Shown in pieces: positions 35,150 through 37,163 of a stretch of DNA of 64,000 nt. The notes below the pieces were generated by a model. It saw nothing but the letters and a program-made list of their open reading frames with translations. It made no database searches and was not told where the DNA came from. The stretch is taken from contig CAZQUL010000001.1 in NCBI GenBank assembly GCA_964596525.1, positions 204,830 to 268,829 on the forward strand, read 5' to 3'. This DNA is from an uncultured Gammaproteobacteria bacterium (GTDB lineage Bacteria; Patescibacteriota; Patescibacteriia; Magasanikbacterales; GWA2-37-8). Within the stretch, counting starts at the first letter, position 1; each line of letters begins with the position of its first letter. The translations under genes and the position numbers were made by a program.

Positions 35150-36490
35150 ATGAGAATATTAAATATAAAAATTAAAGATTTTAGAAATATTGTGAGGGCT
35201 GATATTAATTTTGAAAAAATTAATATTCTTACTGGTAAGAATTCAAGTGGTAAATCTAATTTTTTACTTGCTCTTAGCCAATCTTTATCCAAAGAAAGGG
35301 ATTATTCTGAAATTTTTTCTAGTAATGTAGTTACATTTCGTCCTGGTAAAGACTACGCTACGATAGGAACAAGGATAGGTGGTGTGAACACTGAAGCTTG
35401 TTATTTACAGGATAAAAAGTTTTTTTGTATTAGTCCTCAAGAATTCTATTTTGAAAAGGAAATTAATAAAAAAGCCTTTTCAAAAGTCCATAAAGTGTAT
35501 TTTACAGGCCGTTATTTTGATAGCGAAAAAAGCAACGGTATAACCTGGTCTGAATTTAGAAAGAAAAGAGATGAGTTTTATTTGAAATCAGAACATCATT
35601 TGGTTTACGAAGAAAAATTCTTTAAAGAAATTCAGGAAGATATTACAAAAGTCGTTCAGCTTTCTAAGAAACAACTTCCTCATCAAGAGGAATATCTGAT
35701 CTCTCTTAACGATCTAAATCGGTCATTGGTGAGTTGGGTTGAAAAGACCGATGAAATACACCGGTTTGTAACAGAAAAGGGAGATCGAGAAATTTTTGAC
35801 CAAGTTGTTGAGAGATTGAAAAAGAGAAGTATTAAACAGGGCTCCTCCTTGAGGAGGACTCTGTTTAGTAAAGCAAAATTTATCTTTCTTCTTGCCGACC
35901 TCCAAAGTAGTGAAAAGCAATATATAAACTTTAAAAACGACTTAAAAATTTATACAAAGGGCATAGTAACCAATATCTTTATTAACAAAAGAGGTAATAA
36001 TAAAGGTGAAATAAATATTGATTCTCCAAATGGGCCAAAAGATATCTGGACCATCTCTCATGGCACCTCTATTCTCCTCTTCTTTATTTTGCTCTTAAAT
36101 TGGGTGAGAATACCGGAACATCAAAAAAGCTATATCTCTCCTAAGGTAATGATCTTTGATGAAATAGATTCATTAGTCCATCCAGGTTTAATGTCGGAGT
36201 TTAAAGAGGTGCTTAGATCTCTGTCCGAAGAGGTGCAGCTCTTTATGTCAAGTCACTCGCCGTACTTTATAGATGGTTTTGAAAAAAAAGAAATATTCCT
36301 TTTAAAGGATACTTCTTCGATCCCTGACGCCAAAAGAATATTTGCGAATCGTTGCAATATTTATGATTATGAAAAGATAATATCTCTTTTGCCCGCAAAA
36401 GATCGGAAGGTGTTTTCTGAAATGAAAAACTCAGAACTTTTTGTCAACGGCTTCATTGATCAGATATTTCCGGCTAAAGAATATGACTAG
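35150..36490 (+). CDS. ABC-type ATPase of the AAA_15/AAA_21 (OLD-family-like) class, defence-system ATPase candidate
   Basis: N-terminal MRILNIKIKDFRNIVRADINFEKINILTGKNSSGKSNFLLAL (Walker A), VMIFDEIDSLVHP (Walker B/D-loop), FMSSHSPYF (H-loop). Confidence 0.85.
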   Translation: MRILNIKIKDFRNIVRADINFEKINILTGKNSSGKSNFLLALSQSLSKERDYSEIFSSNVVTFRPGKDYATIGTRIGGVNTEACYLQDKKFFCISPQEFYFEKEINKKAFSKVHKVYFTGRYFDSEKSNGITWSEFRKKRDEFYLKSEHHLVYEEKFFKEIQEDITKVVQLSKKQLPHQEEYLISLNDLNRSLVSWVEKTDEIHRFVTEKGDREIFDQVVERLKKRSIKQGSSLRRTLFSKAKFIFLLADLQSSEKQYINFKNDLKIYTKGIVTNIFINKRGNNKGEINIDSPNGPKDIWTISHGTSILLFFILLLNWVRIPEHQKSYISPKVMIFDEIDSLVHPGLMSEFKEVLRSLSEEVQLFMSSHSPYFIDGFEKKEIFLLKDTSSIPDAKRIFANRCNIYDYEKIISLLPAKDRKVFSEMKNSELFVNGFIDQIFPAKEYD

Positions 36491-37163
36491 GCTATGTGTT
36501 TTTATTGGCGAAGGAGATAGTGAGAGATATTTTTTACCTAGCCTACTCCAACATCAGATGGGGTTTTCTCCGCTTACTGATAAAAATGCTCATTTTTTTC
36601 AAAAAAATAATCTTGACCCCAATTGGTTTTTTCCCTTCCCCCCTTTAATCAGTAGTCCAGAAGGTGGAAAAGATAGGCTTAAAAGACCTAGTACATATAA
36701 ACAAGTTGATGCATTTATTCGGAATAATGCTTATCTTTTTACCGAACCGTTAGAGATCTTTTATCGCGTTGCAGTGGATCATGTTTATACGGATAAGCAG
36801 GGACAGGCAAAGAAAAAACAAGCAATTGAGAAGGCCATTAAAAATTCGAGCGTCTCTTATTGTGGATATCGAGTAGAAATTGTTGAAAATGAGATAGAAA
36901 ATTGGTATTTTGCGGGACTAAACAGGAACTTCCCCTATCTAATAAATCCAGGAAGTCAAGCCTGTAAAGATCTTCTCAAAAAAGATCCTGAGTGTATTTC
37001 AGATCCTAAAACTAACTTAAGATTAATTATCTCTCCAGAAATCCACGGAACTATAAAATTGGCTGAGGTAATGGGTCAGTATTTTGATATGGTAAATGCC
37101 CGATCGCGTTCGCAAAGTTTTGATAATTTCTATAAAAATTTACATAACGACGGTCTGATTTAA
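36483..37163 (+). CDS. Toprim-like small protein (RloB/DUF4435-like) partnered with the ATPase
   Basis: ATG 36483 overlaps the ATPase stop by 8 nt; N-terminus LCVFIGEGDSERYFL resembles the OLD/Toprim glutamate motif. Confidence 0.6.
   Translation: MTRLCVFIGEGDSERYFLPSLLQHQMGFSPLTDKNAHFFQKNNLDPNWFFPFPPLISSPEGGKDRLKRPSTYKQVDAFIRNNAYLFTEPLEIFYRVAVDHVYTDKQGQAKKKQAIEKAIKNSSVSYCGYRVEIVENEIENWYFAGLNRNFPYLINPGSQACKDLLKKDPECISDPKTNLRLIISPEIHGTIKLAEVMGQYFDMVNARSRSQSFDNFYKNLHNDGLI

Follow-up and report, generated by a model that had tools for sequence, protein, structure and literature searches.

What do two overlapping genes at positions 35150 to 37163 of a 64,000-nucleotide (nt) stretch of bacterial DNA encode, and which role could they play on the genomic island that carries them? 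The stretch, hereafter the window, comes from contig CAZQUL010000001.1 of GenBank assembly GCA_964596525.1 (positions 204,830 to 268,829, forward strand), and an original prediction, made from its letters alone, had proposed that the two genes form a candidate anti-phage module of the PARIS, AbiL or OLD type, which consists of an ATP-binding cassette (ABC) ATPase (here gene A) and a Toprim-like protein (here gene B). From the analyses described below we conclude that the pair is, with a probability of roughly 0.6, a self-contained module of an ABC ATPase and a DUF4276 Toprim protein, which is carried as island cargo and acts as an ATPase-gated Toprim nuclease in abortive infection. The parts of this reading differ in strength: that the pair is an ATPase-DUF4276 module of the HEC-01/MAD3-4 type is very likely, and an anti-phage nuclease mechanism, which is drawn by analogy with OLD, Gabija and PARIS (PMC6755086, PMC10781630, PMC11464382), is slightly favored.

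Gene A and gene B form a compact gene pair

The two genes are located at the following positions:

35150..36490, + strand: gene A, presumed sensor/regulator subunit, AAA_15/AAA_21-type ABC ATPase, 446 amino acids (aa), based on the open reading frame (ORF) and Pfam
36483..37163, + strand: gene B, presumed nuclease effector, divergent DUF4276/Toprim-fold protein, 226 aa, based on the ORF and family profiles

Both ORFs were confirmed, and with them the proposed 8-nt overlap between the stop of gene A and the start of gene B (ATGACTAG, 36483-36490, + strand). In shuffles of the 2-kb segment (n = 300), stop-free runs had a mean of 82 codons and did not exceed 143 codons, which is why both ORFs are regarded as extending far beyond chance. 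An alternative TTG start at 36441 would lengthen gene B to 240 aa; the ATG is the likely start, since all homologues begin with M-(S/T/N)-(R/K)-(V/L)-C at this position. Promoter-like sites around the pair were no commoner than in shuffles.

Gene A carries the motifs of an ABC ATPase

The alignment of gene A with 49 homologues, which share 35-67% identity, was used to assess the following elements:

35234..35260, + strand: Walker A motif GKNSSGKSN, aa 29-37; S33, G34 and K35 invariant in the 49 homologues
35354..35668, + strand: beta-rich Insert 1, aa 69-173, least conserved part of the ATPase, based on the secondary structure of the model (conservation 0.40)
36056..36070, + strand: ABC signature-like motif SHGTS, aa 303-307; S303 and G305 invariant
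36152..36184, + strand: Walker B motif and D-loop IFDEIDSLVHP, aa 335-345; D337, E338 and H344 invariant, D340 nearly invariant
36248..36268, + strand: H-loop SSHSPYF, aa 367-373; H369 and S370 invariant

The Walker A, Walker B and H-loop motifs on which the assignment to the AAA_15/AAA_21-type ABC ATPases had been founded were all located and contain invariant residues, and gene A scored above the Pfam thresholds of AAA_21 (58 bits) and AAA_15 (54.6 bits). Judging from the conserved residues of the alignment, the catalytic set of an ABC ATPase is intact in gene A. The AlphaFold model (predicted local distance difference test score (pLDDT) 88, predicted template modeling score (pTM) 0.89) displays an ABC head with the beta-rich insert and a helical insert (aa 174-270), and the mean column conservation amounts to 0.40-0.47 in the inserts and 0.64-0.69 in the core. 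By structure comparison, the model resembles the heads of SMC/Rad50, PtuA, AriA and OLD.

The wider sequence comparisons place gene A close to several defence ATPases. Searched against the sequences of the PDB at E ≤ 1e-3, the gene A profile retrieved PtuA (2.2e-11), GajA (1.5e-8), Rad50 and TsOLD (9e-6), and did not match AriA. In PADLOC, the models named 'AriA' ranked first, followed by HEC-01A (2.7e-15), PtuA, mad3 (6.5e-15), Old and AbiLi. These 'AriA' matches cover the same residues, with near-identical profile lengths and scores, as those of Pfam AAA_21 and AAA_15, and we infer that the respective models are generic and not PARIS-specific. The NCBIfam model of PtuA reached 36.7 bits on gene A, compared to a cut-off of 500.

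A transport or SMC-type ATPase, which had been named as the outcome that would speak against the original prediction, was not found. SMC_N reached 39.9 bits with a cut-off of 40 and matched the N-terminus only, and an SMC protein was rejected on the grounds that gene A comprises 446 aa with short inserts and without long coiled coils; ABC_tran gave an E value of 0.056, and a transport protein was rejected as well.

Family profiles place gene B in DUF4276

The nature of the second protein becomes apparent at the level of its family, which is rare: among 1.84 billion representatives, which were searched exhaustively with a profile, only 85 clusters reached E ≤ 1e-3. The family statistics given here refer to a 50-sequence alignment of gene B and 49 relatives, in which E10, F17, D99 and E139 are invariant and E14, K34, P53, Y72, W141, K176, A206, S210 and F213 are nearly invariant. 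In Pfam, PF14103 (DUF4276) was matched by 25 of the 50 sequences (best E 1.6e-9), OLD-like_TOPRIM by 2, RloB by 1 and DUF4435 by none. PADLOC assigned 35 of the 50 to HEC-01B (best E 6.7e-10) and 1 to AbiLii, and its models of AriB and, at E ≤ 1e-3, of mad4 matched 0 of the 50. The window protein itself gave no match to PF14103 even at E ≤ 10, and in a small alignment of this protein with its three closest relatives, three of the four sequences matched. In NCBIfam, gene B matched MAD4 with an E value of 0.031 (14 bits compared to a cut-off of 160).

Using hhalign, the gene B family was aligned over residues 2-225 with a set of shorter proteins (99.8%, E 8e-28), 15 of 19 of which are canonical DUF4276 proteins (best E 2.5e-21). 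The same comparison revealed that the gene B family carries about 40 additional aa (at roughly aa 29-68), an insert that is not present in canonical DUF4276. The AlphaFold model of gene B (pLDDT 95, pTM 0.90) shows a predicted three-layer alpha/beta fold of the Toprim type. This is in line with the assignment of DUF4276 to the Toprim superfamily, with the E and DxD motifs (PMC12065111). Among PDB sequences, the gene B profile matched only PH0156, via the Toprim-glutamate motif (E 0.0036), and left AriB unmatched at E ≤ 10. PH0156 of Pyrococcus horikoshii (PDB 2p62) is an uncharacterized protein, and the identity is 15%.

From the profiles and the model we conclude that gene B is homologous to DUF4276 over its full length and has a predicted Toprim-like fold, and we consider the profile evidence at the family level decisive for the DUF4276 assignment. 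The broad classification of the pair as a split ABC ATPase and Toprim system could therefore be retained, based on the invariant E10, the DUF4276 family profiles and the Toprim-like model. The more specific family proposals did not hold: the suggested DUF4435/RloB-like character of gene B gave way to DUF4276, and the suggested resemblance to PARIS (AriA/AriB) and AbiL (AbiLi/AbiLii) was not borne out, since AriB and DUF4435 are matched by none of the 50 family members and AbiLii and RloB by one each, the window protein being neither. A strict PARIS or AbiL system, in which an ATPase scaffold would hold back a DUF4435/RloB Toprim nuclease until the sensing of an anti-restriction protein sets off tRNA cleavage, is thus very unlikely and already largely refuted, and this is also reflected in the seemingly generic 'AriA' matches of gene A and in the PDB search, which did not retrieve AriA.

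A candidate active site in gene B

The conserved residues of gene B are found in three motifs:

36492..36536, + strand: Toprim glutamate motif LCVFIGEGDSERYFL, aa 4-18 of gene B; E10 invariant, E14 nearly invariant
36774..36794, + strand: DxD position VDHVYTD; D99 invariant, V101 in place of the second Asp, H100 and D104 kept in the closest relatives
36882..36917, + strand: VENEIENWYFAG, DUF4276 'EIESW' motif after strand 4; E139 invariant, W141 nearly invariant, candidate second-metal ligand

As expected for a Toprim glutamate, E10 is located at the end of predicted strand 1 (residues 2-9) and is invariant in the 50 sequences. D99 ends the third core strand, E137 and E139 start the helix that follows strand 4, and K176 is located in the helical part of the protein. 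In BpOLD, the corresponding machinery consists of the Toprim glutamate E400 with E404 four residues further on, a DxD motif (D455/D457), two residues on the first helix past the Toprim core (T506 and E508) and K562 in the helical domain (PMC6755086). The E-x3-E spacing of gene B is identical to that of E400/E404. Hence, the E-x3-E, D, E and K of gene B may parallel E400/E404, D455, E508 and K562 of BpOLD, a comparison drawn from the order and spacing of the motifs and from the predicted secondary structure, and by analogy the VENEIENWYFAG site could correspond to T506/E508. At the DxD position, the arrangement DHxxxD (D99-H100-x-x-x-D104) was found in the window protein and in its relatives P0002, P0003 and P0059.

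The pair resembles catalogued ATPase-DUF4276 modules

HEC-01 (Hma-embedded candidate 1, PADLOC-DB v2) was found embedded in a methylase-containing system, and HEC-01B is said to share the metal-binding site of BpOLD (bioRxiv 10.1101/2024.01.29.577857). Like the window pair, it is a two-gene module of an ABC ATPase and a small Toprim-like protein, and the HEC-01A models match gene A (E 2.7e-15 and 8.1e-15), the better match consisting of two partial stretches. However, gene B matches the C-terminal half of HEC-01B only, carries the insert of about 40 aa and, within the window clade, has no second Asp at the DxD position; in addition, the pair is not embedded in Hma and its hosts are mostly candidate-phyla-radiation bacteria.

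A similar picture emerged for MADS, in which mad3 encodes an ABC ATPase and mad4 a DUF4276 protein. Both of these genes are needed for defence, and MAD6, MAD7 and MAD8 are mandatory in the published model (bioRxiv 10.1101/2023.03.30.534895); MADS3-4 has been placed among the defence pairs that combine an ABC ATPase with a Toprim protein (PMC11464382). Gene A matches mad3 nearly over its full length (E 6.5e-15), whereas the window pair stands alone, without mad6-8. Membership in MADS was rejected, as PADLOC gave no mad5-8 match among the eight island proteins scanned.

The remaining systems differ in composition. In OLD (P2 Old, BpOLD, TsOLD) and GajA, a single polypeptide comprises both the ATPase and the Toprim part, whereas the window genes are separate; the similarity of gene B to the OLD Toprim is marginal (Pfam E 0.07), and a UvrD-like helicase, which accompanies class 2 OLD and Gabija, was not revealed by Pfam in the island. 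A Septu or retron-associated PtuAB system was rejected, since the partner is a DUF4276 protein and not the HNH protein PtuB and since no reverse transcriptase was detected nearby using Pfam. With PARIS, the window pair shares the split ABC ATPase and Toprim effector and the frequent location on mobile elements, and the pair may plausibly act in an analogous way, with a sequestered nuclease that is freed when a trigger is sensed.

Taken together, the sequence profiles indicate that the pair very likely belongs to an already catalogued class (HEC-01 / MAD3-MAD4 type), within which it represents a divergent clade. Its distinguishing marks are the insert in gene B, the altered DxD in its clade and the host range.

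The pair recurs as a unit in unrelated contexts

Beyond the window, 12 distinct loci were recovered, and in all 12 gene A is immediately followed by gene B on the same strand. The two genes overlap by 8 nt in 5 of these loci and by 4 nt (ATGA) in 4; they are 1-3 nt apart in 2 further loci, and 1 junction is unresolved. The identities of the gene A and gene B homologues to the window proteins are correlated (r = 0.92, n = 10 loci). From this correlation and the constant adjacency we conclude that the two genes travel and diverge together. The related loci are mostly located in candidate-phyla-radiation bacteria, and judging from these relatives the window island is probably carried by such a bacterium as well. 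The named hosts are Candidatus Lloydbacteria, Saccharibacteria, Magasanikbacteria, 'Patescibacteria group' and one metagenome-assembled genome labelled Gammaproteobacteria. In one locus (L007), the gene B homologue is short or split (177 aa plus a 56-aa ORF; 9361-9894, 10058-10390), which may represent a decaying copy of the module.

In the window, the pair is located on an island that extends from about 30.3 kb to a tRNA-Ala gene at 43181..43254. The island contains three large ORFs without an assigned family, the A-B pair, a convergent operon of a nuclease and a Dam methylase, a LOOT RNA, a gene with similarity to helix-turn-helix (HTH) proteins or excisionases, a tyrosine recombinase and a large serine recombinase. 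The annotated elements apart from the pair are:

37165..37644, - strand: PD-(D/E)XK nuclease gene, candidate type II restriction enzyme, 159 aa, convergent with gene B (PDDEXK_11 E 2.8e-36)
37649..38479, - strand: Dam-family N6-adenine DNA methyltransferase gene (MethyltransfD12 E 6e-60; TIGR00571 292 bits; PADLOC MTase_II E 6e-92)
38538..38659, - strand: LOOT RNA (Rfam RF03000), directly 5' of the methylase gene (85.1 bits compared to a gathering score of 46.4, full length)
40324..41463, + strand: tyrosine recombinase gene (Pfam Phage_integrase E 1.2e-9)
41696..43243, + strand: large serine recombinase gene, 3' end overlapping the tRNA-Ala gene (Resolvase E 1.9e-33, Recombinase E 2.1e-11)
43181..43254, - strand: tRNA-Ala(TGC), right border of the island (ARAGORN; Rfam tRNA 70.8 bits)

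The three large island ORFs at 30438-33482 (- strand, 1014 aa), 33801-34838 (+ strand, 345 aa) and 38765-39718 (+ strand, 317 aa) gave no match in Pfam, NCBIfam, PADLOC or PHROGs. The guanine-cytosine (GC) content is 33% in gene A and 36% in gene B, compared to 52% outside the island, and the Dam methylase and the PD-(D/E)XK nuclease follow immediately downstream on the other strand, in agreement with the low-GC island beside a restriction-modification (R-M) system that had been described; the two adjoining genes are a candidate type II R-M pair. The stop codon of gene B (+) lies 1 nt from that of the nuclease gene (-) (37161-37167), and the convergent operons have no terminator between them. 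A convergent gene of 250 aa in L006 extends 7 nt into the end of gene B.

This neighbourhood raises the question of whether the pair is an accessory of R-M, i.e. functions only together with the adjacent methylase and nuclease, as mad3-mad4 do in MADS or RloA/RloB in type I R-M loci. The tail-to-tail arrangement with the nuclease gene would fit such a role, as would the match of gene A to mad3, the weak match of gene B to MAD4 and the discovery of HEC-01 within a methylase-containing system. However, the precomputed Pfam annotation lists no methylase beside the pair in L002, L003 and L005-L008, tblastn with the window methylase and nuclease found nothing in L002-L017, and the mandatory MAD6-8 are absent, which renders an R-M accessory improbable. 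The other contexts are diverse: L003 contains a Gp49/HTH toxin-antitoxin-like pair, and large serine recombinases are located beside the pair in L003, L006 and L008, as in the window, where the recombinase is 32% identical to that of L008, which makes at least four serine-recombinase islands among the contexts. The serine recombinase is the only gene common to the window island and these three islands. Since the contexts are otherwise unrelated, we conclude that A-B is an autonomous two-gene cargo and not an R-M accessory. L006 also harbors adjacent Prok-JAB and ThiF (E1-like) genes (4429-5810) about 2 kb upstream of the pair, which resemble the ubiquitin-like conjugation modules of some defence systems.

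The island setting also bears on two further explanations. One of them is a housekeeping pair for DNA repair or recombination, comparable to RecF (ABC ATPase) and RecR (Toprim) or to SbcC/Rad50 with a nuclease. The scores, however, remained far under the cut-offs of such families (RecF 32 bits compared to 172), gene B gave no RecR match, the low GC content contrasts with that of the surrounding genome, the island is bounded by recombinases and a tRNA gene, and such a rare and patchy family is ill-suited to a core function, so that we consider this explanation highly improbable. Somewhat less remote, though still unlikely, is a module for island addiction and stabilization or for the exclusion of competitors, in which gene B would be a toxic nuclease that is kept in check by gene A and phage defence would not be the main role. 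This would be consistent with the serine-recombinase islands of the window, L003, L006 and L008, with the patchy, sporadic distribution of the family (85 clusters) and with the missing phage protection by HEC-01 (see below). On the other hand, other copies are located in apparently non-mobile housekeeping contexts, and the related ABC-Toprim systems of known function are anti-phage systems (PMC11464382, PMC10781630). The addiction and phage-defence roles are not mutually exclusive.

A proposed mechanism and its weak points

If the pair acts as an ATPase-gated nuclease in abortive infection, genes A and B would be made in a fixed stoichiometry and their products would form a complex, in which gene A would serve as sensor and gate, with its variable inserts potentially recognizing a cue of infection. 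The gene B protein would then be released or activated through the binding or hydrolysis of ATP, and it could employ an OLD-like two-metal chemistry to cut either DNA, as OLD and Gabija do, or tRNA, as PARIS AriB does. The outcome would be growth arrest or abortive infection, by which phage growth would be stopped.

Several points weigh against this reading, some of which concern gene B itself. Scanned alone, gene B reached no Pfam threshold, and its sole Pfam match was OLD-like_TOPRIM with an E value of 0.07 (aa 5-34). The missing HMM (hidden Markov model) match to Toprim, DUF4435 or RloB families, which had been named beforehand as a finding that would count against the proposal, thus applies to the single sequence, but not to the family profiles and the structure model, which connect gene B to Toprim. 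The PADLOC match to HEC-01B is weak (E 6.6e-4) and involves only aa 123-221 and the C-terminal half of the model, and Foldseek found nothing for the gene B model in the PDB at E ≤ 1e-3. Furthermore, where most family members display DxD or DxE, the window protein displays D-H-V, and since the second Asp is missing, the catalytic competence of gene B is not assured. In BpOLD, a single D457A change is tolerated (PMC6755086). The missing Asp is no proof that gene B is inactive, yet it is a real caveat.

Other points concern function and context. One HEC-01 representative that was tested in E. coli protected against none of the phages tried (bioRxiv 10.1101/2024.01.29.577857), functional evidence has not been reported for any stand-alone ATPase-DUF4276 pair, and complex formation, trigger and substrate are all inferred in the mechanism outlined above. 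At L002, L005 and L007, the pair is surrounded by housekeeping neighbors and no defence genes. Finally, no relative of gene B was found on viral contigs at the sensitivity of the search method. Among the island proteins, only the generic ATPase matched PHROGs, and there was nothing for gene B or the ORFs without a family. The lack of both viral-contig relatives and PHROGs matches therefore leaves no sign of a prophage for the island.

Additional elements of the island and of related loci

A full-length LOOT RNA is present in 3 of the 13 distinct loci, at a distance of 0.05-2.6 kb from the pair, and all copies exceed the Rfam gathering score of 46.4:

38538-38659, - strand, window: LOOT RNA, 85 bits
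12600-12721, - strand, L006: LOOT RNA, 85 bits
3552-3681, + strand, L003: LOOT RNA, 73 bits

LOOT is always located 5' of unrelated genes: in the window this is the dam methylase gene, in L006 an ORF of 110 aa and in L003 a gene with DUF4352. A large serine recombinase gene is found a few kb from each LOOT and abuts a tRNA or transfer-messenger RNA (tmRNA) gene in the window and in L006; LOOT may be a component of candidate-phyla-radiation integrative islands. In the window, L006 and L008, the recombinase gene and a tRNA or tmRNA gene on the other strand share 38-63 nt at their 3' ends:

window: recombinase 41696-43243 (+ strand), tRNA-Ala 43181-43254 (- strand)
L006: recombinase 13749-15341, tmRNA 15298-15687
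L008: recombinase 7742-9283, tRNA 9246-9317

This arrangement points to integrative elements of one family, which would be targeted to tRNA/tmRNA genes and carry, inside the recombinase ORF, the sequence that restores the gene end. The far end of the window island showed no direct repeat of the tRNA.

One could also suspect a module with a distinct function, which would serve ultra-small episymbiotic bacteria in immunity or exclusion and is spread by tRNA/tmRNA-inserting serine-recombinase islands that also carry LOOT, and in which LOOT might act as a regulatory or partner RNA of the islands or of the module. This possibility is raised because of the insert of about 40 aa in gene B, the D-H-x3-D in part of the clade, the beta-rich Insert 1 of gene A and the mostly candidate-phyla-radiation hosts. 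We regard such a distinct module as rather unlikely.

The left part of the window island contains a 54-nt box, GTGGACTTTGAGATCGGATTTTGGAAC..., in three direct copies with 70-81% identity:

30376-30429, + strand: 54-nt box
33711-33764, + strand: 54-nt box
34885-34938, + strand: 54-nt box

Each box is preceded by a perfect hairpin of 12-16 bp with flanking A- and T-runs, which resembles a bidirectional terminator, and one frame of the boxes reads (V/A)(D/N)FEIG(F/L)WN..R..YL. The boxes mark off the island's left border as well as two cassettes of one gene each upstream of gene A (the 1014-aa and 345-aa ORFs), and they were not found in the other loci. Copies of the tRNA-Ala 3' end, i.e. att sites, were rejected as an explanation, as the alignments were no better than those of shuffles (228-289 of 500 reached at least the same score).

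Implications for the DUF4276 branch and its hosts

Candidate-phyla-radiation bacteria have few recognized defence systems. Pairs that combine an ABC ATPase with a Toprim protein are a recurrent design of prokaryotic immunity, which includes OLD, Gabija, PARIS and AbiL, and the DUF4276 branch is the least understood among them. Since single-sequence HMM scans miss gene B, the locus refines the annotation of such pairs. It adds a well-delimited divergent clade with high-confidence models and clear candidate catalytic residues, and it illustrates that both genes move together on candidate-phyla-radiation integrative islands. The gain is incremental, and the locus represents a possible second test case for HEC-01-type systems.

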